Shown: positions 6,966 to 61,487 of the stretch, in pieces
Numbering within the stretch: the first letter of the stretch is position 1
How the letters are laid out: every line of letters starts with the position of its first letter
Assembly: GCA_963730155.1 (NCBI GenBank)
Contig: CAVSQV010000003.1
Location: 1,123,226 to 1,187,225, forward strand
Length of the DNA stretch: 64,000 nucleotides
Source: an uncultured Acidobacteriota bacterium
GTDB taxonomy: Bacteria; Acidobacteriota; Thermoanaerobaculia; Multivoradales; JBCCEF01
Direction: 5' to 3'
Translations under genes and position numbers: made by a program
The notes under the pieces: model-generated
Databases searched by the model: none
Told to the model about the DNA's origin: nothing
The model's input: the letters and a program-made list of their open reading frames with translations, nothing else

Positions 6966-6973
6966 CGCGCTCC

Positions 6974-8037: not shown

Positions 8038-8125
8038 CGGGGGGTGGCGATCATATCGCTCGACGCCGCCGGCGGGCGCGAGCGGCTCCGCCTCGCGGTA
8101 TAACTCCGGTCCAGGAGGCCGGAGG

Positions 8126-11387: not shown

Positions 11388-11429
11388 GCGAGCCCTCCGA
11401 CGTCCGGCCTACCGGACGCCGACCGTCAT

Positions 11430-13280: not shown

Positions 13281-14072
13281 TCAAGGCTCGCCCCCCGGGG
13301 TGCCGGCCGGTGGGGCGGCGGTCCCGGGACCGCCGCCCGCGAGGATGATCCTCGAGAGCTCGACCCGCAGGCTCCCGACGTCCGGCGGGCCTTCGACCTC
13401 ACCCACCTCGCCTTCGCGCAGATCGAGCGTGGCCGGCGGCCGCGAGCCCGCCATCGGGAGGAGGATCAGCCGAGCCCGCCGCTGCTCCGGGTCCGTGACC
13501 TCCGCCCACAGGCGGAGCGCCCCCGCTCCCGGCAGCCGCAGCACCGCGCTCTCGGTCTCCGAGATCCGGAGCGTCGCCGGCGCGTCGAGGCCGGGATGGG
13601 AGACCACGACCACCACCGCCGGCCCGACGACGACGTCGACGGGGTCCGTCCTCAGCGGGGTCGGGAAGACCGGCAGGCTCGACGGCTCATCCTCGATGCG
13701 CCTCCGGATCAGGCCGTCGGCATCGCGGATCACGCCGGCATCGAGGAAGAAGTCGAGCAGGTCCGCCATCGCGATCTTGCTCTCGGACCTCGCCGCCGCG
13801 ACGATCAGGTTCCCCTCCATCTCCATCTGCTGGAGGCGGCGGTTCTCGCAGCCCCCGAACCACTGCGTGGCGATCGCGACAAGGATCACCGCTCCCGCCG
13901 TGATGATCGCGTTCGTGGGCCACCGGCTCTCGCGCTCCTTCGCCTTGACCTCCAGCTCCCTAGCCTGGACCTCGCGCGAGCGCAGCTCGAGCTCGCGGCG
14001 GAGCAAGGCCGCCTCGGCCTCGAACTTCCTCTCCTCGAGGGAGGGTTCCGGCGGCGGCTCGTCGGCGCTCAT
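13281..14072 (-). CDS. Membrane-anchored hypothetical protein (coiled coil, one TM segment, extracytoplasmic domain)
   Basis: The charged heptad-like N-terminus (EERKFEAEAALLRRELELRSREVQARELEVKAKE) is followed by a hydrophobic segment, AIITAGAVILVAIATQWF. Confidence 0.6.
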   Translation of the reverse strand: MSADEPPPEPSLEERKFEAEAALLRRELELRSREVQARELEVKAKERESRWPTNAIITAGAVILVAIATQWFGGCENRRLQQMEMEGNLIVAAARSESKIAMADLLDFFLDAGVIRDADGLIRRRIEDEPSSLPVFPTPLRTDPVDVVVGPAVVVVVSHPGLDAPATLRISETESAVLRLPGAGALRLWAEVTDPEQRRARLILLPMAGSRPPATLDLREGEVGEVEGPPDVGSLRVELSRIILAGGGPGTAAPPAGTPGGEP

Positions 14073-14157
14073 CGATCGCGGGGGATTCGGTCGCGGGGTG
14101 GGTTGCGCATCGAGGATATGAAGGTCTCGACCTCTCGGTCAAGAGTATACGCGACCA

Positions 14158-16098: not shown

Positions 16099-16163
16099 GG
16101 CTCTCCTTCGGCCGACCTGTCTATCACGCCCCTGGAAGTGTACGGCGCGGTTCCCCGGCCGTC

Positions 16164-17984
16164 TCAGTCCGCCGGCGGCCGGACCAGCACCCGGCCCGGG
16201 CGGTCGCGCAACTCGACGGTCATCTCGCCGAGGCCGGCCGGCGCACCCGGCGGCGCCGAGACGTCGACCGACAGCTCGTAGTGGCCGGCCAGAGTGCGGG
16301 CCAGGCGGCGGGTGACCTGGCCGGCGAAGGTGTGGGTCTTGTCGTAGGTGCCGCCGGTCTCCTCGGCGATCGCGCGCAGCCCCATTTCGAGGTCGTGGTA
16401 CTCGGCGTCGGTGACGTCGAGCACGAACACCGAGGCGCGCGCCGCCGCCAGCGCCGCCACCGCCTCGGCATGGCCCGGATTGCGGCGAACGACGCCGCGG
16501 TCGAGCCGGCCGAGCCCCCAGCCGAGCCAGATCACCGCCTTCTCGCCGGGCAGGGCGACCAGCGCCTCGGCGGTCATCTCGAGCCCGCGCTCGGCGGTCG
16601 CCACCGCCATCGCCACCCGCGGGTCCCAGCGCTCGCCGAGCCCCGGGCCGTCAGGGCGCCGGCCCGCCGGCCGGCCGCCGAAGTACGCGGCCCGTTCGAG
16701 CGCCTCGTACACGGCGTCGCGGTCGCCGGTGAAGTCCTGCCACAGCTTGAGGTGCGAGTCGAAGGAGACCACCGCCAGCCGGTCATCCGCCGGCAGCGCC
16801 TCGATCAGCTCGCGGGCGAACGGAAGCTGCTTGAACTGGCCGCGCAGGCGGATCGCCTGCGGGTCGGTCTGGACGAACAGCAGCACCAGCCGGCCCGCCG
16901 GCCCGGCGCCGCCGTCGGCTCCCTCGCCGCCCGGCCGCCGCGGCGCGCCCATACCGTTGCCGGCCTCGTCGTCCGCGGCACCGCCGGCGGCGACCCAGTC
17001 CACGGCCACCACCGGCAGCTCCCGCCGCCCGGCGCCGCGCCCGGCGTGGACGACGAAGTCGGCGGCGCCGAGACCGGGGATCGGGTCGCCCGAGCGGTCG
17101 AGCGCCCGCACCACCAGAGTGCGCAGCGCCACCTCGATGGACTCGCCGAAGCCGGCCTGGGGATCCGCGCCGCCGGACCCCTGCGCCGGCGCCGGCGCCG
17201 AAGGCTCCCAGCGCTCGACCCGGCGGCTGCCGGGCGGCGGCGCGTAGGCGACCTCGCCGGCGGCCGGCGGCGACCCCGGCCGGTGGCTGACCCGCCATCG
17301 GATCGCCGCGCCGCCCGAGAGCGTCGCCGCGCCCGGCGGACCCGGCGCCGGGAGCGCCGGCGCCAAGAGCTCGACCTCGGCCTCGAAGATCAGCAGCCGC
17401 TCGCGCTCGATCACGAGCCGGGAGCGGACCGCGCCGCCGTCGAACGCCAGCGTCAGCACCCAACACTCGGCGCCGTCGCCGCACGGCTCCGGGCCGTCGA
17501 CCGCCGCCGCCGAGGGGTCGGCGAGCGGCGCCGAGCTGCCCGCGAGGAGCGCCGGCACGGCGAGGGCGTCGAGCCCGCCGGAGCCGAGGCCGGCGGCCCC
17601 GGGCAGCCCCGCGACCGCCGCCGCCGCCGACCCGAAGGCGAGCCGCTGCCCGCGGGCGGGGTCGTAGATGCCGCCGTCACCGGCATCGCCCCAGAGCACC
17701 CGCTCGCCGCCGGCGGCATCGCGCAGGACGAGGCGGAGGGCGCCGCCGGCCGCCGCGGTCTCGAAGTGCCAACGACGGACCGTGGTCTCGCCGCCGGCGT
17801 TCTCGGTTCGCTCGATCTCGCCCTCGTCGCGGTAGGCCGGCAGGGCACGGTAGGCGCGCTCGACCGCCGCCCTCAGCTCCGCGGGCGAGGGGACCCGCTC
17901 CTCGGCGGGCGCCGCCGTCCCGGCCGCCGAGGTGGCGGCGAGCACGGCGAGGGTGGCGAGCACGGCGGCGGCGCGGGCGCTCAC
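16164..17984 (-). CDS. VWA-domain protein of the TIGR03436-like type, with a LolA-like N-terminal domain; start uncertain
   Basis: VLLFVQTD...DRLAVVSFDSHLKLWQDFT...VFVLDV...ETGGTY. A signal-peptide-like segment follows the GTG at 17984. The ATG given by the ORF track (18149) would overrun the divergent vapB promoter. Confidence 0.7.
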   Translation of the reverse strand: MSARAAAVLATLAVLAATSAAGTAAPAEERVPSPAELRAAVERAYRALPAYRDEGEIERTENAGGETTVRRWHFETAAAGGALRLVLRDAAGGERVLWGDAGDGGIYDPARGQRLAFGSAAAAVAGLPGAAGLGSGGLDALAVPALLAGSSAPLADPSAAAVDGPEPCGDGAECWVLTLAFDGGAVRSRLVIERERLLIFEAEVELLAPALPAPGPPGAATLSGGAAIRWRVSHRPGSPPAAGEVAYAPPPGSRRVERWEPSAPAPAQGSGGADPQAGFGESIEVALRTLVVRALDRSGDPIPGLGAADFVVHAGRGAGRRELPVVAVDWVAAGGAADDEAGNGMGAPRRPGGEGADGGAGPAGRLVLLFVQTDPQAIRLRGQFKQLPFARELIEALPADDRLAVVSFDSHLKLWQDFTGDRDAVYEALERAAYFGGRPAGRRPDGPGLGERWDPRVAMAVATAERGLEMTAEALVALPGEKAVIWLGWGLGRLDRGVVRRNPGHAEAVAALAAARASVFVLDVTDAEYHDLEMGLRAIAEETGGTYDKTHTFAGQVTRRLARTLAGHYELSVDVSAPPGAPAGLGEMTVELRDRPGRVLVRPPAD

Positions 17985-18096
17985 CGGCCGGTCCCGGTCC
18001 CGCTCGGGCAGCGCCCCTTCTCTGGGTCCGTTGCGCTCCACGCCCAGACTCTCTATCACGGTCCCCGATGCCGAGGGGCGCCGGCGTTGCAGCGTC

Positions 18097-18125
18097 TTGA
18101 CGGCTCCAGGCTCTACATACAGAAT
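18097..18125 (+). promoter_or_regulatory. Sigma70-like promoter for vapBC-2; implies a leaderless antitoxin mRNA
   Basis: TTGACG, a 17-nt spacer, then CAGAAT. The vapB ATG begins 8 nt after the -10 element and no SD sequence lies between them. Confidence 0.4.
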
Positions 18126-18132
18126 TGCATGC

Positions 18133-18384
18133 ATGAGCACCAAGACCATCGCCGTCGATTCGCAGGTCTACGAGCGCTTGGCACGGGTGAAGCGGGAGGG
18201 GGAGTCGTTCTCCAGGGCGATCGACCGGATCCTCGAGGAGGTCGGCGCCGTGCACACCGGGAGAGACGTCCTCCGGGCTCTCGAAGGCGTCGTTCCACTA
18301 CCGGAGGCGGATGCCGCGGTCATGCTGGCCATCGTGGAGGAGAACCGGGCCGACGAGGCCTGGGAGCGACGTGATCTGCGTTGA
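18133..18384 (+). CDS. vapB: VapB-type antitoxin (PF02697-like 'putative antitoxin')
   Basis: 83 aa starting MSTKTIAVDSQVYERLARVKREGESFSRAIDRILEE. Overlaps the PIN gene by 14 nt. Confidence 0.75.
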   Translation: MSTKTIAVDSQVYERLARVKREGESFSRAIDRILEEVGAVHTGRDVLRALEGVVPLPEADAAVMLAIVEENRADEAWERRDLR

Positions 18385-49845: not shown

Positions 49846-51810
49846 ATGCCTTCAAGCCCGATCCGTAGTGCGCACGCATTCCTCGCCGCACTCGCCGCTC
49901 TCTCCGTCCTCGCCGTAACCGCGCCGCCGGCGCGCGGCGCCGGCTTCCCGCCGATAACCGACGCCGATCGCGCGGTGACCGGCATCCCCGGCGAGCCGAA
50001 TCCGCCCGCGGTGGTGATCTTCCGGCGCGGACGCCTGAAGCTGCTCGAGTACCCGCGGGACGTCTACTCACAGCTCGACGTCGAGGTCCGGATCAAGGTC
50101 CTCGACGACCGCGGCAAGGAGATGTTCGGGGAGGTCGAGATTCCGCACAGCCGCTTCTACCGCCTGTCCGGTTTCCAGGGGCGCACCGTGCTCCCCGACG
50201 GGCGCGAGGTGCCGGTGGGCGAGGACTCGATCTTCGTCGACACCACGTCGCGGTCGCGGAAGCGATACGTCACCAAGGCGGCGTTTCCGGCCCTCGAGCC
50301 GGGCGCCATCCTCGACTACCGATACACCCTGCGCTGGGACAGCTTCCTCACCTTCGAGCCCTGGTACTTCGCCGACTGGGTGCCGACTTTGCGCTCCGAG
50401 ATCACCTACGTGGTGCCGGGCAACATGGCCGCCAAGCCGTGGGCCCGCGAGATCGGCGGCGCCGAGCTCCACGCCGAGAGCGGCCAGGACGTCCAGGGCC
50501 GGCTGGTCAAGGTCTGGGCCGACAACGTCCTGTCGATCCCCGATGAGCCCTGGTCGTTCCCGTTCGAGGACCTCTCCAGCCGCTTCCTGCTGGTGCCGAC
50601 CGAGGTCGCCACCGGCGACGGCGCGCTGGCGCTGCTGAGGTCGTGGGCGGACACCCGCGAGATCGCCGAGTACAACTACAACGAGGCGCGCAAGGGCAAG
50701 GGTGACGCGCGGCAACTGGCCAAGGACCTGACCGCGGGTGCCGTCACCCCGCGCGCCCGCGCCGAGGCGATCTACCGGTTCAGCCGCGACGAGATCCAGC
50801 ACGACGGCTTCATCGGCGTCTTCACCGGCGAGGGCTCGACCATCGGCCGGGTGCTCAAGGATCGCCGCGGCGGCGCTGCCGAGCAGGCCCTGGTGCTCGA
50901 AGAGATGCTCGACGCCGCCGGCCTCGTGCCCCGGCTGGTGTGGGCGGGGGACCGCCTCGACGGCCGCATCGATACCGAGATCGCCAACCCGGCGTGGTTC
51001 GAGCGCGTGCTCGCGATGATCGAGCTGGACGGCGAGCGGGTGTTCCTCGATCCGCTCGACCGCAACCTCGGCTTCGGTCAGCTCGCCCCGGGCTTCGAGG
51101 GCATGCCCGCCCTGCTCTACCAGCGCAAGCCCGAGGTGATCGAGCTGCCCTCCGCCGCAGCCGCCACCAACGTCCGCCGCGCCGAGCTGACGCTGGCGGT
51201 CGGCGCCGACGGCGGTGTCACCGGCGACGGCGCCCTGGCCTTGACCGGGCACCACGCGTGGCTCGCGCGCACGCAGACGGCGATCGACGGCGATCGCGAG
51301 CCGGCGGACTACTGGCGGCAGAGCCTCGAGAAATCGTTCCCGGACTACGAGGTCGACGGCGTGGAGGTCGCGGACGACGTCGACGGCCGCCGGATCACGG
51401 TGACCTGGAAGCTCGCCCTGCGCGAGGAGGAGCTGCTGGAGGACGAGGTGACGATCTGGCCGAGCCGCCCGATCGGCCCCGCCGTCCAGCAGTTCGCGCT
51501 CTCCCCGGAGACGCGCCTGACGCCGGTGCAGCTGTTGTTCGCCGACGTCGACGAGGTGGCGCTCACCGTCGCCTGGCCAGAGGGCTGGGCGGTCGAGCTG
51601 CGGCCCGACGATCTGACCCTGAGCAACGCCACCGGCGCGGCCGAGCAGCGGGTCGAGATCGACGAGGCGGACCGGAAGCTGCGCTACAGCCGGCGCCTCG
51701 AGATCACCCACGCCGAGATCCCGTCCGGGCCGCAGTACGCCGCGCTGCGCAACCTCACCGCCGCCGCCGAGAAGGCCGATGCCCAGCCGCTGGTGCTGTC
51801 GGCTCGCTGA
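49846..51810 (+). CDS. DUF3857 / transglutaminase-like secreted protein, apparently lacking the catalytic Cys and His
   Basis: Signal peptide. Colinear with the next gene, but GGAAEQALVLEEMLDAAG replaces GDCKDKALLLIDLLAEVG. Confidence 0.65.
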   Translation: MPSSPIRSAHAFLAALAALSVLAVTAPPARGAGFPPITDADRAVTGIPGEPNPPAVVIFRRGRLKLLEYPRDVYSQLDVEVRIKVLDDRGKEMFGEVEIPHSRFYRLSGFQGRTVLPDGREVPVGEDSIFVDTTSRSRKRYVTKAAFPALEPGAILDYRYTLRWDSFLTFEPWYFADWVPTLRSEITYVVPGNMAAKPWAREIGGAELHAESGQDVQGRLVKVWADNVLSIPDEPWSFPFEDLSSRFLLVPTEVATGDGALALLRSWADTREIAEYNYNEARKGKGDARQLAKDLTAGAVTPRARAEAIYRFSRDEIQHDGFIGVFTGEGSTIGRVLKDRRGGAAEQALVLEEMLDAAGLVPRLVWAGDRLDGRIDTEIANPAWFERVLAMIELDGERVFLDPLDRNLGFGQLAPGFEGMPALLYQRKPEVIELPSAAAATNVRRAELTLAVGADGGVTGDGALALTGHHAWLARTQTAIDGDREPADYWRQSLEKSFPDYEVDGVEVADDVDGRRITVTWKLALREEELLEDEVTIWPSRPIGPAVQQFALSPETRLTPVQLLFADVDEVALTVAWPEGWAVELRPDDLTLSNATGAAEQRVEIDEADRKLRYSRRLEITHAEIPSGPQYAALRNLTAAAEKADAQPLVLSAR

Positions 51811-53701
51811 GCGCGGGCGGGCGGCGGCGGTCGCTGCGTCGGCCGCGGCGGCGCTCGCCGCCGGCCCGTTCGCCGCCGGGCCGCTCACCCGGCCCGCCGC
51901 GGCGGCCACCGTGCTCGACCAGCGGGTCACCCTCGAGATCGCCGGCGAGCGGGTGCGCGAGCACACGGTTCTCTCGGTGCGGCTCGACGGCCCCGCCGAC
52001 GTCGAGGCGTGGTCGAGCTATCCGGTCTACGTCGACGAGCACCGCACCCTGGTCGACGCGGCGGGCGCGGTGACCCACCCCGGCGGCGAGCGTCAGAGGG
52101 TCAAACGCCGCCATCGCGACGAGGTCGCCGCGTCGGGCGACGGCATCTTCCACGACTCGTCGCGCTTCCACCTGCTGCAGCTCCCCGGCCTGCGGCCGGG
52201 CTCGGTGGTCGAGATCGAGACCACCGTCGATGTCGCGCCCTACTACCCGGCCGGCGCCCTGCGCCTGGTCGGCGGCGACCGCATCGAGCGGCTGCGGGTC
52301 GAGGTGCGCGGCGCCGGCGCCGGCTGGCGCTGGCGGATCGACGGCCCGGCCGCGGGGCTGACCGCCGAGGAGACCGCCGGCGGCGTGGTCGTCACCGGCG
52401 CCGGGATCGAGCCGCCCGACCCGCCCGAGGCGAGCCCCGGCGGCGCGGCGATCCGGCCGGTCCTGCGCTACGGCTGGGGCGGCGACGGCACCTGGGCCGG
52501 CGTCGGCCGCTGGTACGCCGGCCTGCTCGAGACGCTGCCGCGCGCCGAGCCGGCGGTGCGCGAGCGCGCCCGGGCGCTGGCGGTCGAGGACCGCCGCGAG
52601 ACCCTCGAAGCGCTCACCGCCATGGTCCAGCGCGAGGTGCGCTACGTCGCGGTCGAGGTCGGCATCGGCGGCTACCGGCCGTCGCCCCCCGCGGAGACCT
52701 TCGAGCGCCGCTGGGGCGACTGCAAGGACAAGGCGCTGCTCCTGATCGACCTCCTGGCCGAGGTCGGCATCCCGGCCCACCCGGCGCTGGTGATGCTCGC
52801 CGACGGCGACCGCGTCGACGCCGAGTTCCCGGCGCCCGGGCAGTTCAACCACCTGATCGTGGCGGTGCCGGCGGCCGCGGTCGCGGCGAGCCCGACCGAC
52901 GCGGTGGCCGGCGGCTACCTCTTCGTCGACCCAACGCAGTCGGCCGGCGGCGCGCGCTGGCTCGGCCCGGGGGTCCAGGGCCACCACGCGCTGGTGGTAG
53001 TCCCCGGCGGCGGCGAGCTGGTGCGCCTGCCGGTGATCGCCGGCGGCGAGGGGACCGACCTGGTGGTCAACCTCCACGTCGACTCCGACGGCGGCGCGCG
53101 CGGCGGCGCCGGGCTCCACGTCCGCGGCCTCCTGGCCCAGGCCCTGATCGACCATAACTCGCGCGGCGAATCCCAGAGCGAGGGGGCGCTGCGCTCGATC
53201 TTCTCCGGCCTCGTGCCGGGCGCCGACCTCGCCGACGTCGGCTGGAACGCCGGCGACGGCCCGGTGCCCACGGTCGACCTCGCCGCCGCGGTCACGGTCC
53301 CGCGCCTCCTCCAGGGCGAGGGCGACCGGGCGTCGCTGATGCTGCCGGCGACGCGCTCGGGGCCCGACCCGCGGCTGGTCGGCGACCGCACCGAACCGCT
53401 GGTGACCGACGCCGGCGTCTACACGGTAACTTGGCACGTGGCGCTGCCGGAGGGATGCACCGCGCCGGAGGACGACGCCGTCGAATTCGCCAACGCCGCC
53501 GGCAGCTTCCGCCAGACGGTGACCCGCCGCGGCGAGGCCGGCTTCACCCTCGAGCGCGCCGTCGAGATCCACCACCGCTGGTACGGCCCGGAGCTCCTCC
53601 CCGCCCTCGGCGAGCTGAGCCTCGCGGAGAACCGCGCCCTCCGCAGGCGCCTCCGCTTCGCCTGCCCGCCGGGCCGAACCGACCCCGCGGCGGCGCCGTA
53701 A
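51779..53701 (+). CDS. DUF3857 / transglutaminase-like secreted protein with an intact Cys-His-Asp core; start uncertain
   Basis: The pieces WGDCKDKALLLIDLL, QFNHLIV and FVDP fit a transglutaminase-core triad. Confidence 0.7.
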   Translation: MPSRWCCRLAERGRAAAVAASAAAALAAGPFAAGPLTRPAAAATVLDQRVTLEIAGERVREHTVLSVRLDGPADVEAWSSYPVYVDEHRTLVDAAGAVTHPGGERQRVKRRHRDEVAASGDGIFHDSSRFHLLQLPGLRPGSVVEIETTVDVAPYYPAGALRLVGGDRIERLRVEVRGAGAGWRWRIDGPAAGLTAEETAGGVVVTGAGIEPPDPPEASPGGAAIRPVLRYGWGGDGTWAGVGRWYAGLLETLPRAEPAVRERARALAVEDRRETLEALTAMVQREVRYVAVEVGIGGYRPSPPAETFERRWGDCKDKALLLIDLLAEVGIPAHPALVMLADGDRVDAEFPAPGQFNHLIVAVPAAAVAASPTDAVAGGYLFVDPTQSAGGARWLGPGVQGHHALVVVPGGGELVRLPVIAGGEGTDLVVNLHVDSDGGARGGAGLHVRGLLAQALIDHNSRGESQSEGALRSIFSGLVPGADLADVGWNAGDGPVPTVDLAAAVTVPRLLQGEGDRASLMLPATRSGPDPRLVGDRTEPLVTDAGVYTVTWHVALPEGCTAPEDDAVEFANAAGSFRQTVTRRGEAGFTLERAVEIHHRWYGPELLPALGELSLAENRALRRRLRFACPPGRTDPAAAP

Positions 53702-53812: not shown

Positions 53813-54631
53813 ATGATCCGGGTGATTGACGGGTACGAGCGCACCAGGTATCATTCCGTCTGGATCGTGCGAGAACGAGACCTTCCGATGAGCGACCTCC
53901 TAGCCGACCGCCTGACGATCGTCGAGCTCTCGAGCGACGAGCGACGCCTCTTGGCGCGCAGCCATCCGGAGATCGAGCCCGGCGCGCCGGCGGTGGTGAT
54001 CTCGGGCCGCCGGAGCCTCGCCGTCTTCTCCGAGGCGACGGAGCGGGACGCCGGCCCGGCGGGATGGGACGTCGCCTATCCGGCGGCCGAGGAGACGGCG
54101 AGCGAGGTGCGCGAGCCGGCGCTCGCGGCCCTGGCCTTCGGCGGTGCCGAGCCGCCGCTCCCGGGCGCCGTCCTGCTCGGCGACCTGGTCGACGTGCTCA
54201 CCCCCGATCTGCGGGTGGCGAGCACAGCGGCGGTCGCCCAGGCCCGGCGCAACGCGCTCGCCCGCGCCGAGCTGGCGCGGGAGTTCGGGCTCCTGACCAG
54301 CATCGACGTGGCCGGCCTCGCCGGTTCCAGGGCGCGCAACCGCGCCGCCCTGGCCAACCGCTGGAAACAGGAGGGGCGGCTGTTCGCCGTCCCGCACGGA
54401 GGCCAGCAGCTCTGGCCCGGCTTCCAGCTCGACGAAGAGGGGCAGCCGCGGCCCGCGATCGCCGAGGTGCTCGAGATCCTCGGCCCCGAGTTGCCGCCGT
54501 GGCAGATCGCGCTCTGGTTCACGAGCCGAAGCGGGTGGCTCGACGGGGAGCGGCCGGTGGACCTGCTGGCGAGCGAGCCCGTGCGAGTCGTCGAGGCCGC
54601 CCGGCGAGACGGCGAGCCGCCCGCCTTCTGA
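53813..54631 (+). CDS. Xre/ParS/MbcA-type antitoxin (C-terminal DUF2384-like toxin-binding domain) with an unusually long N-terminal extension
   Basis: The C-terminus WQIALWFTSRSGWLDGERPVDLLASEPVRVVEAARR is DUF2384-like. It lies immediately upstream of the RES gene. An alternative start is possible at 53888. Confidence 0.65.
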   Translation: MIRVIDGYERTRYHSVWIVRERDLPMSDLLADRLTIVELSSDERRLLARSHPEIEPGAPAVVISGRRSLAVFSEATERDAGPAGWDVAYPAAEETASEVREPALAALAFGGAEPPLPGAVLLGDLVDVLTPDLRVASTAAVAQARRNALARAELAREFGLLTSIDVAGLAGSRARNRAALANRWKQEGRLFAVPHGGQQLWPGFQLDEEGQPRPAIAEVLEILGPELPPWQIALWFTSRSGWLDGERPVDLLASEPVRVVEAARRDGEPPAF

Positions 54632-54633
54632 CG

Positions 54634-55269
54634 ATGTTCCCGCCGGCTCCGCCCGAGCCGTGGGCGCTCGACCCGCTGGTCTCGGTCTGGAGCGCCGGCA
54701 AGCCGCTGGTGCGCGTCCACGACCGCCGGTTCGGCCCGGCTTCGTTCAACCCCGGCGGCGGGCGCGGGCGCTTCCATCCCTTCACCCGCGAGGACGGCGC
54801 CCCGGTGCCGACGCTCTACGCGGCCGACACCGTGGACGGCGCCCTCTCGGAGACAGCCTTCCGCGCCGTGCCGGTCCGCGGGCCGGCCCGCCGTCTCGCC
54901 GCCACCCGCCTCGGTCCCCTGCGCCTCTCGGTGCTGATGCCCGGCCGCGACCTGCGGCTCGCCGCCCTCCACGGCCATGGGCTGCGCCGGCTGGGCCTCG
55001 ACCGCCGCGAGCTGATCGATACCGAGGCCTCCGCCTACGAGCGGACCATCCCCTGGGCCGCCGCCCTGCACGCCGCCCCGATCGGCCTCGACGGCCTGGA
55101 ATGGGTGTCGCGCCAGCACGACACCAGCCGGGCCGTCCTGCTGTTCGGCGACCGGATCGCGCCGGGCATCCTCTCGGTGAGGTCGGGACCGATCGCGCTG
55201 GATCGCGGGCCGGGCTGGGACCTGGTGCTGCAGGCGGCCGAAGAGGCCGGGATCCTGATCGTGCTGTGA
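54634..55269 (+). CDS. RES-domain toxin (NAD+-degrading family)
   Basis: Contains GRGRFHP, LYAADTVDGALSETAF and WVSRQ (R/E/S pattern). The ATG lies 2 nt after the antitoxin stop. Confidence 0.8.
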   Translation: MFPPAPPEPWALDPLVSVWSAGKPLVRVHDRRFGPASFNPGGGRGRFHPFTREDGAPVPTLYAADTVDGALSETAFRAVPVRGPARRLAATRLGPLRLSVLMPGRDLRLAALHGHGLRRLGLDRRELIDTEASAYERTIPWAAALHAAPIGLDGLEWVSRQHDTSRAVLLFGDRIAPGILSVRSGPIALDRGPGWDLVLQAAEEAGILIVL

Positions 55270-55381
55270 CTACCGAAGACCTGACTATCCGAAGATCTCG
55301 TCCAACGGCACCCGCAGGCCCGGGAAGGCGAGGCTGGTCAGCTCCTCGCCCGCCCTCCGGCCACTACCGCCGCTCCCCCCC

Positions 55382-55783
55382 TCACCGCCCTCGGCCGATC
55401 ACCGGGAGCTGGCCGCGGTGCAGCCAGAGGACCACGAGGCTCGCCGCCAGTACGATCACCGCCAGCCCGAACAGCAGCCCGCCGTCGCCCTGGACCTCGA
55501 CGCCGAGGAACGCCAGGTGGCTGACGACGGCGCCGGCGACCAGGCCGGCCGCGAGCAGCGCGCCCCAGGCCGCGGTCCGCGGCCAGAGCAGGAGCGCCGC
55601 GGCGACCAGCTCGAAGACGCCGGTGGCGATCCGCCCCCAGGGCTCGACCCCCAGAGTGCCGAAGATGTAGACCGACTCCGGCGCCCCGTTGAACTTGAAC
55701 CAGAGCGTCTGGAGCAGGATCCCGGCGGCGACCAGCCGCGCGATCCAGCTCACGACCGTAGCGGCGCGAGACGACTCGACCAT
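55382..55783 (-). CDS. DoxX-family membrane protein
   Basis: Four hydrophobic segments and the motif LLQTLWFKFNGAPESVYIF. Confidence 0.7.
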   Translation of the reverse strand: MVESSRAATVVSWIARLVAAGILLQTLWFKFNGAPESVYIFGTLGVEPWGRIATGVFELVAAALLLWPRTAAWGALLAAGLVAGAVVSHLAFLGVEVQGDGGLLFGLAVIVLAASLVVLWLHRGQLPVIGRGR

Positions 55784-56013
55784 GGCGTTTCCTCCCGCTT
55801 CCGAACCCTATCCGAATGCCGGCGGCGGGCGGATTCGTCAGCCGGGACCGCGTGTTAGTGTCCGTGCCGGCACCTCGCATCCACAGGCCGGCCCCCCGGA
55901 CCGCGGCCCGGAGCGCGCGCCGGAGGGACCCGGGCAGAACCGCGCACGGACCGGACCCGTAGAGCGCCCGTATAGAGGACACGAGCGGCGCGTCCGGCGG
56001 CCGCGCCGGCGAG

Positions 56014-56655
56014 ATGCGTGAAGCCATGGTGAGTTCGACGGAGGAGGGACCGGATCTGACCACGATCACCGCGAACGAACGGCCAAGGACCGGAGCCGAC
56101 TCCGGGGTGGCCGCCGCGAACCTGCACCTGATCGCCCAGGGAATCGAGCTGCTGGCGAGGATCGACCCCGGGGTCTACAACGCGCCGCCTCCGGTGCCGA
56201 TGGGGACGATCGGCGGCCACTTCCGGCACTGCCTGGAGTTCTTCGAGCGCTTCCTCGCCGGGTTCGAGAGCGGGCGGGTCGACTACGACGCCCGCGAGCG
56301 CGATCCGCGGGTCGAGGTCGATCCGCTCCACGCCCGCGACCGGCTGGCGGCGGTCGCCGTGCGGCTGCGCGCGCTGCCGGAGGGCGCGGCCGACCGGGCG
56401 CTCGACGCGGTCCACGACCGCGACGGCGACGGCTCCTCGCTCGACGAGGCGCCGGCCGGCCGCTCCTCGGTGCGCCGGGAGCTCGACTTCCTGGCCAGCC
56501 ACACCACCCACCACTATGCCCTGATCGGCGCCCAGATGCGGCTCCACGGCGCCGAGCCGGGAGCCGACTTCGGCGTCGCCGCGTCGACCCTCGCGCATCG
56601 ACGCCGCGGTCTTGTAGGAGGGGGGCTGTTCCAGCCCCCCTCCCCGCGCGAGTGA
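56014..56655 (+). CDS. DinB-superfamily protein
   Basis: His-rich helical bundle cues: GGHFRHCLEF and SHTTHHYALI. Confidence 0.5.
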   Translation: MREAMVSSTEEGPDLTTITANERPRTGADSGVAAANLHLIAQGIELLARIDPGVYNAPPPVPMGTIGGHFRHCLEFFERFLAGFESGRVDYDARERDPRVEVDPLHARDRLAAVAVRLRALPEGAADRALDAVHDRDGDGSSLDEAPAGRSSVRRELDFLASHTTHHYALIGAQMRLHGAEPGADFGVAASTLAHRRRGLVGGGLFQPPSPRE

Positions 56656-59414
56656 CGGTCCTGTTCGGAGGGGGCGCGGGGCCCCTCCCCCGAGCCAGCG
56701 GCCTGCCCCACCGTTGGCGGCTCGCCCTCCTGGTCTACCTGGCGCTGCTCGCGGCCAGCCACCTGGTCCGGCTGCTCGCGCCCGCGGCCGCACCCGGGCC
56801 GCCGCCCGGAGTCCGCACCGCCCAGCTCCCCGAAACCGGCCGCGGCGCCGATCCCGGCCGGCGGGTGCGGGTGGCCTGGCAGGAGTGGGGTGAGGGCGAG
56901 CGACGCGCGGGCGAGTCGGCGCCGCTCCTCCTCCTCCACGGCAGCCCGGGGAGCCGCCACGACTTCGACGGCCTGGCCCCCCAGCTCGCCGCCGGCCGGC
57001 GGGTGATCGCGCCCGATCTGCCGGGCTTCGGCGACTCCGAGCACGCGGTCGCCGACTACTCGATCCTCGCCCACGCCGGGTACGCCCGGGCGCTGCTCGA
57101 CCACCTCGGCGTCGGCCGCGTCCACGTCCTCGGCTTCAGCATGGGGGGCGGCGTCGCGCTCCACCTGGCCGAGCAGGCTCCCGAGCGGGTCGCCTCGGTG
57201 ACGCTCCTCGCCGCCACCGGGGTGCAGGAGCTGGAACTGCTCGGCAGCCAGCCGCTCAACCACGCGGTCCACGGCCTCCAGCTCGCCGCGATCGTCCTCG
57301 CCCAGGAGGCGCTCCCCCACTTCGGCGCCCTCGACGGCGGGATGCTCGACCGACCCTATGCCCGCAACTTCTTCGACAGCGACCAGCGGCCGCTGCGCGG
57401 GATCCTCGGCCGGCTCGAACCGCCGGCGCTGATCGTCCACGGCGTCGACGACCCGCTGGTGCCGGTGGCGGCGGCGCACGAGCACCACCGCCTCCTGCCG
57501 CAGAGCGAGCTGGTGCTGCTCGCGACCGACCACTTCTTCCTCTTCCGCGACGGCGGCGCCGAGGCGGCGCCGGCGATCGAGCGCTTCCTCGCCGCCGCCG
57601 ACGCCGGCCTCGCGCCGTCCCGCTCCGAGGCGCCGGCCGACCGCCGCGCGGCCGCCGCGGCGCCATTCGATCCTGCCGCCCTGCCGCCGCTTGAGGGCCT
57701 CGGCGCCATGGTCACGCTGCTGCTCCTGGCCGCCGGCACGCTGGTCAGCGAGGACCTGACCGCGATCACCGCGGGACTGCTCGCGGCCCAGGGGCGGATC
57801 GCCTTCTGGCCCGCCACGGCCGCCTGCGCCGCCGGCATCTTCGCCGGCGACCTGCTGCTCTATCTGGCCGGACGCGCGCTCGGCCGGCCGGCGTTGCGGC
57901 TGCCGCCGCTCCGCTGGTGGCTCGACGAGCGGGCGGTCGACGGCGCCTCGGAGTGGTTCCGGCGCCGCGGGATGGCGGCGATCTTCGCCAGCCGCCTCCT
58001 TCCCGGCGCGCGCCTGCCGACCTACTTCGCCGCCGGCGTGCTGCGCACCGGCTTCTGGCGCTTCGCCGCCTACTTCGCGGTCGCGGTGGCGTTCTGGACG
58101 CCGCTCCTGGTCGGCGCCGCGATGCTCGCCGGCGAGGGGGCGCTGCATCTGCTCGGCCGGGCGCGGCTGGGGCTCGTGGCGCTCCTCGCCGCGGCGGTGC
58201 TCTTCGCCCTGCTCCTGCGCCTGGTGCTGATCCCGCTCCTGACCCGGCGCGGGCGGCGCCTCCTGGCCGGCCGCTGGCAGCGCTGGCGGCACTGGGAGTT
58301 CTGGCCGCCGTGGCTGTTCTACCCGCCGGTGGTGGCGCACATCCTCTGGCTCGGGCTGCGCCACCGCGGGCCGACCGTCTTCACCGCCGCCAACCCGGGC
58401 CTGCCCGCGGGCGGCGTCATCGGCGAGCCCAAGCGCGACATCCTGCGCCGGCTCGAGGCGGCCGGCGCGCCGCTGCCGCGCTGGGAGTTCCTGCCCGCCG
58501 AGCGCTCCGCGGCCGAGCGGCTGGCGGCGGTCGAGGTCTTCCGCGCCCGCCACGGCCTCGGCTGGCCGCTGGTGCTCAAGCCGGACGCCGGCCAGCGCGG
58601 CTCGGGCGTCGCGGTGGTGCGGAGCGCGGCGGAGGCCGAGCGCTACCTCGCCGCCTGCCGGGTCGACGCCCTGGTCCAGGAGCACGTGCCGGGGGAGGAG
58701 CTGGGCGTCTTCTACGCCCGGCGGCCGGGCGACGAGCGCGGCCGCGTGCTCTCGGTCACCGAGAAGGCGATGCCCGAGGTGACCGGCGACGGCCGGCGCA
58801 CGGTCGAGGAGCTGGTCCTCGCCGACCCGCGCGCGGTGGCGCTCGCCGGGCTCTACTTGGCCGGCCTCGGCGCCGGCGCGGCGCGGGTGCCGGCGGCCGG
58901 CGAGCGGGTGCGGCTGGTCGAGGTCGGCACCCACTGCCGCGGCGCGATCTTCCGCGACGGCCGGCGCTTCCTCACCCCGGAGCTGGAAGCGGCCGTCGAC
59001 CGGATCAGCCGCGCCTGCGACGGCTTCTACTTCGGCCGCTACGACCTCCGCGGCGAGAGCCACAAGGCGATCGCCGCCGGGCGCTTCTCGGTCATCGAGC
59101 TCAACGGCGTGACCTCGGAGATGACCCACGTCTACGACCGGCGGATCTCGCTCCTCGAGGCGTGGCGGACGCTCGCCGGCCAGTGGCGGCTGGCGTTCGA
59201 GATCGGCGCCGAGAACCGCCGCCGTGGGGTCCGCCCGGCCCCGGCGACGGCGCTCCTGCGCGCCGCCCTGCGCTACCGGCGCGAGGCACGCGGCCAGGGC
59301 CCGGCCGCCGGGGCCCCTCCCACCGAGGCCCCGCCCGCCGGGGCCCTGGCCGCCGGGACCCTGGCCGCCGGGACCGGGATCACCGGGCCACCCGCCGTCG
59401 CGCCCGAGGACTAG
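56652..59414 (+). CDS. Tri-domain fusion: alpha/beta hydrolase + DedA/VTT membrane domain + ATP-grasp ligase
   Basis: LLLLHGSPGSRHDF..GFSMGGG (hydrolase). TAITAGLLAAQG..IFAGDLLLYLAGR..AIFASRLLPGARLPTYFAAG (DedA/SNARE-associated). WPLVLKPDAGQRGSGV..VQEHVPGEELGVFY..IELNG (ATP-grasp). Confidence 0.75.
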   Translation: MTVLFGGGAGPLPRASGLPHRWRLALLVYLALLAASHLVRLLAPAAAPGPPPGVRTAQLPETGRGADPGRRVRVAWQEWGEGERRAGESAPLLLLHGSPGSRHDFDGLAPQLAAGRRVIAPDLPGFGDSEHAVADYSILAHAGYARALLDHLGVGRVHVLGFSMGGGVALHLAEQAPERVASVTLLAATGVQELELLGSQPLNHAVHGLQLAAIVLAQEALPHFGALDGGMLDRPYARNFFDSDQRPLRGILGRLEPPALIVHGVDDPLVPVAAAHEHHRLLPQSELVLLATDHFFLFRDGGAEAAPAIERFLAAADAGLAPSRSEAPADRRAAAAAPFDPAALPPLEGLGAMVTLLLLAAGTLVSEDLTAITAGLLAAQGRIAFWPATAACAAGIFAGDLLLYLAGRALGRPALRLPPLRWWLDERAVDGASEWFRRRGMAAIFASRLLPGARLPTYFAAGVLRTGFWRFAAYFAVAVAFWTPLLVGAAMLAGEGALHLLGRARLGLVALLAAAVLFALLLRLVLIPLLTRRGRRLLAGRWQRWRHWEFWPPWLFYPPVVAHILWLGLRHRGPTVFTAANPGLPAGGVIGEPKRDILRRLEAAGAPLPRWEFLPAERSAAERLAAVEVFRARHGLGWPLVLKPDAGQRGSGVAVVRSAAEAERYLAACRVDALVQEHVPGEELGVFYARRPGDERGRVLSVTEKAMPEVTGDGRRTVEELVLADPRAVALAGLYLAGLGAGAARVPAAGERVRLVEVGTHCRGAIFRDGRRFLTPELEAAVDRISRACDGFYFGRYDLRGESHKAIAAGRFSVIELNGVTSEMTHVYDRRISLLEAWRTLAGQWRLAFEIGAENRRRGVRPAPATALLRAALRYRREARGQGPAAGAPPTEAPPAGALAAGTLAAGTGITGPPAVAPED

Positions 59415-59560
59415 CCCGTGGACGAGCCCACCGTCGCAGGATCGTCGAGCCGCCGCTCCACCGGGGCCACAGCTCGAGCGCATAATGTCGCGATCATCCA
59501 ATCCGATCCGGCCGCCGGCCGACCGGCCCGGCGGCCGCGGGCAACCGGGGGGTACCGCTG

Positions 59561-60400
59561 ATGAGCACCGTCGCCGCTCCGCGCCTGACGCCGCCGCCCG
59601 GAGGCTACCCGCCGTTCCCCGAGCTGCTGCCGGCCGGGGTGATCGAGCACGGCCGCTACCGGGTCCGTTTCGCCCACCGCGCCGACGAGCTGGACGCCGT
59701 GCTGCGCCTGCGCTACCGGGTGTTCAACCTCGAGCTGGGCGAGGGGCTCGCCGCCTCCGCCGCCACCGGCCGGGACGAGGACGCCTTCGACGCCGCGTGC
59801 CATCATCTGTTGGTCGAGGACGTGCCGGCAGGCGCGGTGATCGGCACCTACCGGATGCAGACCGCGGCGATGGCCGCCGCCGGGCGCGGTTTCTACTCGG
59901 CCGGCGAGTTCGACCTCTCCAGCCTGCCACCCCAAGTGGTCGCGAGTGCGATGGAGGTCGGCCGCGCCTGCATTGCCCGCGAGCACCGCAACCGCCAGGT
60001 GCTGTTCCTGCTCTGGAAGGGGCTGGCGCGCTACCTCACCGCCACCGGCGCGCGCTACCTCTTCGGCTGCTGCTCGCTGACCAGCCAGGACGCGGCCGAG
60101 GGCCGGCGGGTGATGGCCCACCTCGCGGGCCGAGGGCTGCTCCATCCGGCCCTGCGAGTCGATCCCCTGCCCGGGCTCGGGTGCGCCGGAGGCGAGGCCG
60201 GCGCCCCGGCCACGGCCGAAGCCGAACCCGCCGCAATCGAGCTGCCCTCGCTCTTCCGCACCTACCTGCGCTACGGCGCCCTGGTCTGCGGGCCGCCGGC
60301 GATCGACCGCGAGTTCAAGACCATCGATTTCCTGGTCCTGCTCGACACCGCCGGCCTGGATCCGCGCAGCCGGGCGCTGTTCTTCGATTCCGACCGCTGA
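59561..60400 (+). CDS. GNAT-family N-acyltransferase of the OlsB / N-acyl-amino-acid-synthase (hemolysin-like) type
   Basis: Contains LRLRYRVFNLELGEG, DAFDAACHHLLVED, GTYRM, FDLS, VGRACI..EHR and PSLFRTYLRYGA. Confidence 0.8.
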   Translation: MSTVAAPRLTPPPGGYPPFPELLPAGVIEHGRYRVRFAHRADELDAVLRLRYRVFNLELGEGLAASAATGRDEDAFDAACHHLLVEDVPAGAVIGTYRMQTAAMAAAGRGFYSAGEFDLSSLPPQVVASAMEVGRACIAREHRNRQVLFLLWKGLARYLTATGARYLFGCCSLTSQDAAEGRRVMAHLAGRGLLHPALRVDPLPGLGCAGGEAGAPATAEAEPAAIELPSLFRTYLRYGALVCGPPAIDREFKTIDFLVLLDTAGLDPRSRALFFDSDR

Positions 60401-60583
60401 CCCGGGGAGCGTCGAAGCAAAGACGGCGCCGGTGAGGTTAGCAGCCCGCCGGGCCGGGGGCCGTGCATGCCGCCGCCGGCGGGCCGCCGTCCCCCCCGCG
60501 GTGAGAGTCACGAACCGCGGGACCCGGCGCCGTCGGGGGATTGGACACCGCGGAGCGGCGGCGGGTTCGCGGCGGAGCCGAGA

Positions 60584-61129
60584 TCAGCCGCCGAGCAGCC
60601 ACTCCGGCCCGCCGGCAACGCGGACGCCAGGCGTGCCTTCGAAGCGCGCGGCGATCGCCGCCAGCGTCCGGCCGTCGAGCGGGTGCACCTCGGCCGGCGC
60701 CAGATCGGCTAGCGGCAGCGCGAGATGAGCGCAGGCGACGATCTCCGGATCCGGCAGATCGATCCCGGCCGCCGGGTCGCGCAGCACGAGCCCCGGGCAG
60801 AACGCGACGTCGAGGTCGATCGGCCGCGGCGCGTTGCGGTCGGCGCCGCGCACCCGCCCCAGCTCGGCCTCGAGCGGCCGCAGCACCCGGTGCTTGAGCT
60901 CCGCGAGCGGCAGCGCGGTCTCGATCGCCACCGCCGCGTTCAGGAACGGCGGCGCGTCCGGCGCGCCGACCGCCGCCGTGGCGTAGACCCGCGACGCCGC
61001 GAGCCCCGGGAACCGCTCGGCGAGCCGCCGCACCGCGCGCGGGAGGTTGGTCTCGGGATCGACGTTCGAGCCGAGGGCGATGAGGACGAGCCTTCCCGGC
61101 CCACCCTCACTCGAAGTCGGCGCGCTCAC
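60584..61129 (-). CDS. folK: HPPK (2-amino-4-hydroxy-6-hydroxymethyldihydropteridine diphosphokinase)
   Basis: Contains LIALGSNV, PFLNAAV, RPIDLDV and HPL. Confidence 0.9.
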   Translation of the reverse strand: MSAPTSSEGGPGRLVLIALGSNVDPETNLPRAVRRLAERFPGLAASRVYATAAVGAPDAPPFLNAAVAIETALPLAELKHRVLRPLEAELGRVRGADRNAPRPIDLDVAFCPGLVLRDPAAGIDLPDPEIVACAHLALPLADLAPAEVHPLDGRTLAAIAARFEGTPGVRVAGGPEWLLGG

Positions 61130-61487
61130 GCTCGATCTCCACCCCCACCGAGGCGGCGAAGCGGAGCGCCCCCGGCTTCTCGACCCGCACCCGCACCCGC
61201 TCCGCGCCGTGCTCGACCGCGATCCGCGCCACCGCCTCGGCGAGCGCCTCGACCAGGTAGGGGCGCGACGACTCGACGTGGTCGATCACCGCCTTGGCCA
61301 GCGTCCGATAGTTGAGCGTGTCGGCGACGTCGTCCGAGCGCCCGGCGGCCCGGGTGTCGGCGTGGACCTCGACGTTGAGCAGGATGTCCTGCTCGCTGTC
61401 GCGCTCCCAGTCGTTGATCCCGACGATCCCGCGCAGGAGCAGGTCCTTGATGACGATGCGGTCGCGGAGAGGAAGGGTGCGGGTCAC
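61107..61487 (-). CDS. folB: Dihydroneopterin aldolase
   Basis: Contains IVIKDLLLRGIVGINDWERDSEQDILLNVEV and YRTLAKAV. Overlaps folK by 23 nt. Confidence 0.9.
   Translation of the reverse strand: MTRTLPLRDRIVIKDLLLRGIVGINDWERDSEQDILLNVEVHADTRAAGRSDDVADTLNYRTLAKAVIDHVESSRPYLVEALAEAVARIAVEHGAERVRVRVEKPGALRFAASVGVEIERERADFE

Follow-up and report, generated by a model that had tools for sequence, protein, structure and literature searches.

A 64,000-nucleotide (nt) stretch of DNA from an uncultured Acidobacteriota bacterium (contig CAVSQV010000003.1, positions 1,123,226 to 1,187,225; hereafter the window) carries a short operon in which a 920-amino acid (aa) membrane protein is encoded between a DinB_2 superfamily gene and a gene for an OlsB-family N-acyltransferase (GNAT). 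This protein, which we call the fusion, consists from N to C terminus of a transmembrane (TM) anchor, an alpha/beta-hydrolase, a DedA/VTT membrane domain and an ATP-grasp ligase. Comparison with related loci suggests that the DinB-fusion-GNAT arrangement (56014-60400) may be a trimmed form of a widespread cluster that makes and processes an acyloxyacyl or N-acyl amino-acid lipid, a reading that we favor tentatively and rate somewhat short of an even chance. With the same reserve, we propose that the fusion could serve as an accessory enzyme that processes and exports an aminolipid of the OlsB(A) type, acting by ligation, then translocation, then trimming. The components are all members of known superfamilies, and the cluster is clearly within the aminolipid theme and is not categorically new.

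Few features of the locus are as strong as the linkage between the fusion and the GNAT gene. Of 80 genome loci compared, many of them on truncated contigs, 57 have a GNAT orthologue (50-64% identity) linked to the fusion. Neighbor frequencies (Table 1) were counted for loci with at least 4 kb of upstream and 2.5 kb of downstream sequence, using tblastn searches in which each family was represented by one or two queries (threshold E<=1e-4), a procedure that may miss divergent genes. The initial annotation of this DNA, made from the letters alone, had named co-occurrence with OlsB-like genes in other genomes as a check on its proposal, and such genes indeed accompany three-domain fusions at 42 of the 48 loci from genomes and at 10 of the 11 from metagenomes. 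By simple arithmetic, a single-copy gene in a 5-Mb genome would be expected within 10 kb on either side in about 0.4% of cases. The alternative raised at the same time, a cell-wall ligase with unrelated neighbors, is ruled out by neighbors that are consistently OlsB/OlsA-like.

Table 1. Frequency of gene families beside the fusion and its two-domain (DedA-ATP-grasp) relatives
Neighbor	Three-domain, genome	Three-domain, metagenome	Two-domain, metagenome
GNAT	42/48	10/11	2/7
PlsC	41/48	10/11	1/7
DinB	31/48	6/11	6/7
TANGO2	14/48	3/11	3/7
DoxX	6/48	1/11	3/7

The dominant gene order among the 80 loci is GNAT, PlsC, optionally DinB and TANGO2, and then the fusion, all on one strand and tightly packed, with frequent overlaps. 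Linkage to GNAT survives rearrangement of this order, as seen in the window and at loci L081, L082, L079 and L126/L145. In a metagenome scan seeded with two-domain forms, which lack the hydrolase, these are found in the same cluster (L094, L105, L146 and L166, with GNAT linked in the first three) and also in the arrangement DinB-TANGO2-[DedA-ATP-grasp]-DoxX(-)-GNAT(-), which occurs at L126, L145, L131, L161, L149 and L116.

An OlsA-like PlsC gene stands between the GNAT gene and the fusion in 41 of the 48 genome loci. Because this gene is so regularly present within the cluster, the fusion appears to be normally added to a canonical OlsB-OlsA pair and not to substitute for one of its members. 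The window differs in this respect: its order is DoxX(-), DinB, fusion, GNAT, and no OlsA/PlsC-type gene was found within the 64 kb either by tblastn (best E 0.15) or with a hidden Markov model (HMM) built from 74 cluster-linked PlsC sequences (best E 2.7). The same order is present in L081, a 92%-identical relative, and a 64% relative, L082, carries GNAT-DinB-fusion, likewise without PlsC. Thus, the remark in the initial annotation that no OlsA/PlsC is present holds for the window and its close relatives and fails elsewhere. Judging from these comparisons, the absence of OlsA is probably a trait of the window lineage and its close relatives, and the canonical OlsB-OlsA pair together with the fusion is the likely ancestral or dominant state.

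The fusion itself is widespread. A word-index search yielded 1810 homologues, and the best 120 of these are nearly all 825-992 aa long and 50-92% identical; where database names are given, they are only “alpha/beta fold hydrolase” or “DedA”. The nearest matches (92% and 84% identity) come from Logan assemblies, and the closest named relatives, at up to 56% identity, are Acidobacteriota. When each GTDB species was represented by a single genome, at least 523 loci that encode the fusion were located. Taking the deposited taxon labels of metagenome-assembled genomes (MAGs) as given, most carriers are Acidobacteriota (Blastocatellia, Thermoanaerobaculia, Polarisedimenticolaceae and “Multivorans”) and Planctomycetota, with others among KSB1 and Verrucomicrobiota MAGs. 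Engelhardtia mirabilis Pla133 (cluster in NZ_CP036287 around 839,937-862,513) and Acidobacteria bacterium Mor1 (CP011806, around 2.93-2.95 Mb) are cultured carriers. An assembly or frameshift artifact is ruled out as the origin of the fusion by the hundreds of independent full-length homologues with the same architecture.

An exhaustive HMM search with a profile of the ATP-grasp domain recovered 4445 representatives with E<1e-3, of which 1621 have E<1e-30, each representative standing for a cluster at 50% identity. The top 150 representatives include 68 with the hydrolase-DedA-ATP-grasp architecture, 60 with DedA-ATP-grasp and 20 with ATP-grasp only, some of them fragments; 5 lack DedA by blastp. 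Hydrolase-less DedA-ATP-grasp proteins therefore seem, by this sequence count, to be about as diverse as the three-domain forms. A single representative, P0268 (1121 aa), extends the series to TANGO2-hydrolase-DedA-ATP-grasp, with TANGO2 at the N terminus.

Domain searches agree closely with the initial annotation, which had described a 920-aa three-module protein within 56652-60400: both coordinates and domain calls are right, with the ATP-grasp call needing proof beyond the Pfam scan. Its OlsB-type GNAT about 150 nt downstream in the same orientation was likewise recovered, with a spacing of 146 nt on the same strand. The GNAT protein matches Pfam Acetyltransf_5 (E 4.7e-30). Among NCBIfam models it fits two OlsB equivalogs best; both align along their entire length, with 143.1 bits against a cutoff of 350 and 127.1 bits against a cutoff of 320. 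In the alignment to NF052554, GNAT residues 31-274 correspond to model positions 6-253 of 256. By sequence the protein is thus an OlsB-family member with predicted acyltransferase activity, whose amino-acid specificity is not fixed by sub-cutoff scores. Similarly, the PlsC protein of a Blastocatellia exemplar (L032), in which the Pfam identities of the cluster genes were confirmed, has as its best NCBIfam match OlsA, the lyso-ornithine lipid O-acyltransferase, at 145 bits against a cutoff of 300.

The ATP-grasp call, which by Pfam alone is below threshold (ATP-grasp_3, E 0.0096, 16.5 bits against a 23.2-bit cutoff), is borne out by profile and fold comparisons, and some homologues pass the Pfam RimK cutoff. 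A profile of 14 sequences covering residues 540-885 matched only ATP-grasp enzymes in the PDB: cyanophycin synthetase 2 (7ta5, 5e-7), Ddl (3r23, 5e-6), CphA1 (8e-6), a RimK-domain protein (4e-5) and GshAB. Since the hydrolase dominated Foldseek searches with the full-length model, this domain was modeled separately with AlphaFold2 (AF2; predicted local distance difference test [pLDDT] 86, predicted template modeling score [pTM] 0.83). The resulting model is most similar to the G domain of cyanophycin synthetase (CphA1; E 4.7e-11, template modeling [TM] score 0.53), followed by GshAB and many Ddl enzymes. Both the family profile and the fold thereby place the domain in the ATP-grasp superfamily. 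Only the G-domain-like region aligns with CphA1; a Pfam scan of the fusion found no Mur-ligase domain, and the M and N domains of CphA are absent.

Residues K643 (in VLKPD) and E816 and N818 (in ELNG) do not vary across 24 full-length sequences or across 14 sequences of the domain, and a GDG motif at 712-714 is likewise invariant in the full-length set. By motif analogy, K643 would be the ATP-binding lysine, and E816 and N818 would form the E-x-N Mg site. In the AF2 model the domain does not have the usual N-terminal Rossmann-like subdomain, and two membrane-interfacial helices precede the core instead, a replacement that would fit a membrane-borne acceptor. These helices belong to a linker of net charge +5.5 with invariant residues W548, E549, F550, W551, Y557 and P559. 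The linker is also found at the N terminus of stand-alone ATP-grasp members, which match from profile position 1. At the other end of the domain, the tail of the fusion (885-920) is not conserved, and homologues stop at about residue 880. With more than 1600 clusters at 50% identity, the fusion ATP-grasp is a family separate from CphA, GshAB, Ddl and RimK.

The central membrane domain matches Pfam VTT_dom over residues 371-489 (E 1.9e-16, 61.1 bits against a gathering threshold of 33.9); with the NCBIfam UptA equivalog the fusion scores 53.5 bits against a cutoff of 250. Structural features were read from a full-length AF2 model (pLDDT 81.8, pTM 0.62), and invariance was judged from an alignment of 24 full-length homologues of 49-92% identity, aligned end to end. 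A putative re-entrant hairpin 1 (349-379) contains the invariant residues E367 and D368 and is followed by a TM helix (385-410) with invariant D400. An arginine-rich, predicted cytoplasmic segment with extramembrane helices (412-447) leads to a putative re-entrant hairpin 2 (454-~475), which is marked by invariant R448 and R454 and continues in a TM segment up to residue 503, and a further TM helix spans 507-530. At the level of pattern, the AF2 helices and the residues E367/D368, D400 and R448/R454 would fit a DedA layout with acidic residues in hairpin 1 and arginines in hairpin 2, with E39, D51, R130 and R136 of Escherichia coli YqjA as possible counterparts.

A cysteine-accessibility map of YqjA places its N and C termini inside, with hairpin 1 entering from the periplasm and hairpin 2 (R130/R136) from the cytoplasm (bioRxiv 10.1101/2021.10.18.464800). 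In the AF2 model the fusion retains the YqjA helix order, with the hydrolase inserted between the equivalent of TM1 and hairpin 1. The N-terminal helix (hydropathy peak at 23-46) is predicted to run from inside to outside, standing in for TM1 of canonical DedA proteins. Mean net charges over the 24 homologues are +3.2 for the N-terminal tail, -0.9 after this first helix (TM0), +5.3 for loop 408-447 and +5.5 for the linker that follows the DedA domain. From the YqjA map, the modeled helix order and this positive-inside charge balance, we infer that the hydrolase is periplasmic, since it falls between the TM1 equivalent and the periplasmic hairpin, and that the ATP-grasp domain is cytoplasmic. 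The two-domain relatives begin only 10-38 uncharged or acidic residues before an S-E-D motif, too few to accommodate TM1, which must be wholly missing in these proteins.

The hydrolase module matches Pfam Abhydrolase_1 (E 1.8e-34) and Abhydrolase_6 over residues 92-298, and its catalytic triad of S163 (in GFSMGGG), D267 and H294 is unchanged in 24 of 24 homologues. Fold, triad and G-x-S-x-G elbow together identify it as a serine hydrolase. Foldseek searches with the full-length model returned mostly hydrolases, with esterases at a target-normalized TM score of about 0.7. By both sequence and fold, its neighbors in the PDB are esterases and lipases of a generic kind, among them ABHD6 and PlaF (6i8w), a phospholipase A with a TM anchor.

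Table 2. Features of the fusion locus and of the genes beside it in the window
Feature	Fusion residues	Position	Strand	Basis or remark
DoxX_2-family small membrane protein		55382..55783	-	Pfam DoxX_2 E 8.4e-6; divergent from operon
DinB_2 superfamily protein, first gene of operon		56014..56655	+	Pfam DinB_2 E 2e-9
Three-domain membrane protein (fusion), 920 aa, GTG to stop		56652..59414	+	Open reading frame, Pfam, alignment, AF2
N-terminal TM helix	20-42	56709..56777	+	Hydropathy peak; pLDDT >90
Alpha/beta-hydrolase domain	54-320	56811..57611	+	Pfam, invariant triad, fold matches
DedA/VTT membrane domain	346-530	57687..58241	+	Pfam VTT_dom, AF2 helices, invariant residues
Basic linker and aromatic interfacial helix, RRGRR...WEFWPPWLFYPP	532-570	58245..58361	+	Invariant residues, charge
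ATP-grasp carboxylate-amine ligase domain	571-880	58362..59291	+	PDB profile search, Foldseek, invariant residues
Ala/Gly/Pro-rich low-complexity C-terminal tail	885-920	59304..59411	+	pLDDT <50, predicted disordered
OlsB-family N-acyltransferase (GNAT, Acetyltransf_5), 279 aa, last gene of operon here		59561..60400	+	Pfam, NCBIfam
HPPK gene		about 60584-61129		Placed by synteny with L081
folB		61107-61487		Convergent, downstream of cluster

Building on the observed domain identities, conserved catalytic residues, gene linkage and architectural variants, we propose a topology, a set of substrates and an order of steps. The OlsB-like GNAT, from its family membership, would place a 3-hydroxyacyl chain on the nitrogen of an amino acid, and the OlsA-like PlsC, where present, would attach a second acyl chain. 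In the window, which has no PlsC, either OlsA would be encoded elsewhere or the lyso form would serve as substrate. The membrane-tethered ATP-grasp domain, at the cytoplasmic face, would then activate a carboxylate as an acyl phosphate and join it to an amine. CphA1, GshB and Ddl take an N-substituted amino acid, convert its alpha-carboxylate to an acyl phosphate and then add an amino acid, and an N-acyl amino-acid lipid offers just such a group. Because the CphA G domain, GshAB and Ddl use this type of acceptor, the N-acylated amino acid would most likely provide the carboxylate through its free alpha-carboxylate, giving a head group extended to a dipeptide type or in some other way. The DedA domain, whose putative hairpins retain charged residues that would be critical for function, may admit the lipid to the ligase and move it to the outer leaflet, where the periplasmic Ser-Asp-His hydrolase could deacylate or trim the exported lipid for remodeling or turnover. 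Head-group extension by the ATP-grasp domain and translocation by DedA, both already suggested in the initial annotation, thus remain plausible. A fuller version of this proposal, to which we give a rather low chance, is that the fusion is a self-contained machine, in which tRNA-free ATP-grasp extension of an OlsB-made aminolipid head group with an amino acid or amine is followed by direct hand-over to the fused DedA domain and by editing through the periplasmic hydrolase. To our knowledge, no enzyme that adds the second residue in dipeptide-type aminolipids has been identified. Such lipids (serine-glycine and ornithine-taurine types) do occur in nature (PMC12493201).

Several observations weigh against the proposed processing and export role. 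Neither the GNAT nor the PlsC protein reaches its NCBIfam cutoff (OlsB and OlsA, respectively), and a lipid other than ornithine lipid may therefore be made. Two-domain DedA-ATP-grasp genes often have no GNAT gene nearby (it is linked at two of seven loci with full flanks, and absent from L085) and keep DinB, which suggests that the core might work without any aminolipid; indeed, this two-domain core follows DinB more faithfully than OlsB. The one stand-alone ATP-grasp locus examined shows linkage to neither GNAT nor DinB. The proposed scheme gives no explanation for the roles of DinB and DoxX, and gene linkage implies a shared process and not a shared substrate. Moreover, we know of no report of a dipeptide aminolipid from Acidobacteriota or Planctomycetota.

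Four rival explanations were weighed. The initial annotation had assigned O-acylation to the hydrolase in a non-canonical pathway, and in the window lineage the domain might replace OlsA in the manner of OlsI, so that the fusion would O-acylate the lipid, extend its head group and flip it. Such a replacement would account for the absence of OlsA/PlsC from the window and from its closest relatives, L081 and L082. The hydrolase domain also tracks OlsB/OlsA adjacency (88% of three-domain loci versus 2/7 two-domain loci), and the alpha/beta-hydrolase OlsI has been shown by experiment to O-acylate lyso-ornithine lipid in Singulisphaera (PMC12493201). However, the three-domain protein and an in-cluster OlsA-like PlsC occur together in 41 of 48 genomes, where the hydrolase can be no substitute, and an OlsA gene of the window organism may lie beyond the 64 kb. 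DedA-ATP-grasp forms that have no hydrolase at all make up 60 of the top 150 representatives, and the nearest relatives of the domain are esterases and lipases such as the membrane phospholipase A PlaF. Topology, a check that the initial annotation had called for, also argues against a biosynthetic O-acyltransferase role, because a hydrolase in the periplasm, as predicted, would be away from acyl-acyl carrier protein and acyl-coenzyme A. The OlsI precedent and the lack of an in-cluster OlsA in the window lineage keep some room for the idea, which is weakened and which we rate as quite unlikely. An extension of the same precedent, ATP-dependent N-acylation combined with an alpha/beta-hydrolase O-acyltransferase in ornithine-lipid synthesis (PMC12493201), would make the fusion an independent aminolipid synthase, with its membrane-tethered ATP-grasp domain N-acylating an amino acid from free fatty acid, its hydrolase O-acylating the product, and a second lipid arising beside that of OlsBA. 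This is very improbable: the closest ATP-grasp relatives activate alpha-carboxylates of amino acids or peptides and not fatty acids, the membrane is predicted to separate the two catalytic domains, and the near-obligatory pairing with OlsB/OlsA would be redundant.

Other candidates abandon the aminolipid as substrate. The fusion could act on a glycerophospholipid head group, through ATP-dependent aminoacylation or amidation as an analogue of MprF with its periplasmic hydrolase, or on a polyprenyl-phosphate-linked intermediate, and be only co-regulated with OlsBA in a membrane-remodeling or stress regulon. We consider this unlikely, yet it draws on the two-domain and stand-alone forms that often have no OlsB gene nearby, on ATP-grasp fold neighbors that include Ddl and VanA (enzymes of cell-wall chemistry, with ester formation within reach), and on the way in which a cytoplasmic synthase, a flippase-like domain and a periplasmic hydrolase mirror MprF with AcvB/PA0919. 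Set against it are the UptA score far under cutoff (53.5 versus 250 bits), neighborhoods that show no recurring cell-wall or phospholipid synthesis genes among those examined, and a linkage that is very tight, on the same strand, often with overlapping genes, and persistent through rearrangements across phyla, which exceeds usual co-regulation. DinB-fold enzymes are often thiol-dependent transferases, and DoxX is tied to mycobacterial thiol homeostasis. Together with DinB as the most constant neighbor of the two-domain core (6/7 loci) and glutathione synthetase-type ligases among the fold neighbors, this could mean that the DedA-ATP-grasp core works at the membrane with DinB and DoxX to produce or recycle a small peptide-like metabolite, perhaps related to thiols, and that the aminolipid genes were added in particular lineages. 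Such a role is very improbable, since the clusters contain no cysteine ligase or other thiol-pathway gene, the DinB protein has no informative PDB or NCBIfam match, and the DedA domain, the hydrolase domain and the OlsBA linkage would all be left unexplained.

The initial annotation had not mentioned the DinB_2 (56014-56655) and DoxX_2 (55382-55783) neighbors. The DinB_2 stop codon overlaps the putative GTG start of the fusion (56652, the longest option) by 4 nt, and in 31 of the 48 genome loci the gene just upstream of the fusion is a DinB orthologue, as is the gene before two-domain DedA-ATP-grasp genes in 6 of 7. Searches of the DinB protein against the PDB and NCBIfam gave no informative match. 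As a neighbor of the two-domain core it is more constant than any other family, GNAT included. DoxX genes recur beside the fusion in either orientation at many unrelated loci (for example L001, L011, L022, L027, L079, L126 and L145).

Human TANGO2 is a disease gene whose function is disputed. In many clusters a TANGO2 homologue (PF05742) lies between DinB and the fusion, as in L032 (9219-9956) and about 50 other related loci; in the 64-kb window none was detected by tblastn or by an HMM built from 51 cluster-linked sequences. This operon setting links bacterial TANGO2 homologues to N-acyl amino-acid lipids, and for the human protein a role as a Cys-Ntn hydrolase of fatty-acid derivatives has been put forward (PMC13044924).

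Thermoanaerobaculia-type loci carry a Ferric_reduct/Rieske protein gene and a 259-aa open reading frame (ORF) with no Pfam match directly upstream of GNAT (L082, 1704-3553; also L024, L022, L070, L075, L011, L065, L056, L059 and L080). The 259-aa ORF has tblastn matches in 13 other loci and no homologue in the window. The region downstream of the cluster varies as well: L081 contains, between GNAT and folK-folB, a 1018-aa DUF676/PGAP1-like (lipase-like) gene (13522-16578, reverse strand) that has no counterpart in the window, implying an insertion or deletion directly 3′ of the cluster. Upstream, two tandem, slightly overlapping paralogues with DUF3857 and transglutaminase-like/DUF3858 domains (49846-51810 and 51779-53701, forward strand) are kept as a pair in L081. 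Between the pair and the cluster, L081 encodes a 247-aa ORF, a RES-domain protein and a Uma2 endonuclease (6526-8476), which resemble a toxin-antitoxin insert. The counterpart interval in the window (53813-55670, forward strand) contains ORFs 53813-54631 and 54660-55670 with no Pfam match at 1e-3, and its content may differ from that of L081.

The GC content of the window is about 74%, and the third-position GC content of the fusion (~0.89) is as expected for coding DNA at this level. A scan of 55300-61300 for terminators and promoters, which is uninformative at 74% GC, identified no site, including in the fusion-GNAT gap. The interval 14001-18000 reaches a GC content of 0.79-0.80, high even here, and holds a 667-aa ORF (16164-18167, reverse strand) without a Pfam match. 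A fatty-acyl reductase-like gene (NAD_binding_4, “male sterility”; E 7e-46) is located at 10293-11408 on the reverse strand, 45 kb away and with no evident link to the cluster.

Aminolipids rank among the major membrane lipids without phosphorus, and the diversity of their head groups (serine-glycine, ornithine-taurine and others) is only partly explained in enzymatic terms. A family that is widespread in abundant soil and sediment phyla and tightly coupled to OlsB/OlsA is a candidate for a new step of aminolipid modification and export. The substrates of DedA proteins have been a long-standing question, and a fused enzymatic partner constrains the possible cargo; bacterial TANGO2 homologues, too, are placed in a defined lipid operon. 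If the machine that synthesizes, flips and trims a lipid proves real, no earlier DedA protein would have had both a defined lipid cargo and an enzyme covalently coupled to it; the fusion would also supply a missing enzyme type for dipeptide-type aminolipids, and would offer a bacterial entry point to the biochemistry of human TANGO2 in N-acyl-amide lipid metabolism. Our literature searches found no described DedA-enzyme fusion of this kind, no link of DedA or aminolipids with ATP-grasp, and none of TANGO2 with DinB or an acyltransferase; in these searches the fusion family and its cluster are undescribed. Neither a 2024 aminolipid review nor the 2025 paper on OlsH/OlsI (PMC12493201) mentions such a system.

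The individual modules each resemble proteins that have been characterized. Like YqjA, UptA and TMEM41B/VMP1, the membrane domain matches VTT_dom above cutoff and is predicted to combine two re-entrant hairpins with TM helices; hairpin 1 has acidic residues, and hairpin 2 has two arginines six residues apart, as do R130 and R136 of YqjA, a correspondence of pattern and not of residue-by-residue alignment. It differs in that the canonical TM1 is absent (two-domain forms) or split from hairpin 1 by a 270-aa hydrolase insertion, and in the covalent joining of the VTT domain to a cytoplasmic ligase. The ATP-grasp module has its best profile and fold matches in the CphA G domain, GshAB, Ddl and RimK, with which it has in common the ATP-binding lysine, the E-x-N Mg site and the GDG motif. 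Unlike these enzymes, to which identity is about 20%, it has neither the Rossmann-like subdomain nor the CphA M and N domains, and it is membrane-tethered and fused to DedA. The N-terminal TM helix followed by an alpha/beta-hydrolase recalls PlaF (6i8w), the TM-anchored phospholipase A1 of Pseudomonas aeruginosa, which is among the top fold and sequence matches, with 331 aligned columns that cover the helix. However, identity to PlaF is only ~23%, no better than to many soluble esterases, and PlaF is a stand-alone protein.

At the level of the pathway, a close parallel is the OlsB/OlsA ornithine-lipid route with its modifiers (OlsC, OlsD, OlsE, OlsG and taurine transfer). The GNAT matches OlsB models over their full length, the PlsC of relatives matches OlsA, and the fusion operon holds extra genes, as known ornithine-lipid modification genes do. 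However, ATP-grasp, DedA, alpha/beta-hydrolase, DinB, TANGO2 and DoxX proteins belong to no known ornithine-lipid modifier family, the enzymes here are well under the curated cutoffs, and the window has no OlsA. OlsBA has been listed mainly in Proteobacteria and some Actinobacteria, and neither Acidobacteriota nor Planctomycetota is among the OlsBA phyla listed (PMC12493201). The OlsH/OlsI system of Singulisphaera acidiphila (PMC12493201) also employs an ATP-dependent amide-forming enzyme and an alpha/beta-hydrolase in aminolipid synthesis. It differs from the fusion, by the published description of OlsI, in that OlsH is a GH3 adenylating enzyme and not an ATP-grasp ligase, in that OlsH/OlsI replace OlsBA whereas the fusion accompanies them, and in the predicted periplasmic location of the fusion hydrolase. 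MprF acting with a periplasmic hydrolase (AcvB/VirJ/PA0919) offers a functional analogy only, having the same predicted logic of a cytoplasmic head-group synthase, a translocator and a periplasmic alpha/beta-fold hydrolase. Pfam and NCBIfam scans of the fusion show no MprF domains (neither the C-terminal lysylphosphatidylglycerol-synthase domain nor the flippase TM domain), and the two are not homologous. MprF depends on aminoacyl-tRNA, whereas the fusion would depend on ATP and unite all parts in one polypeptide.

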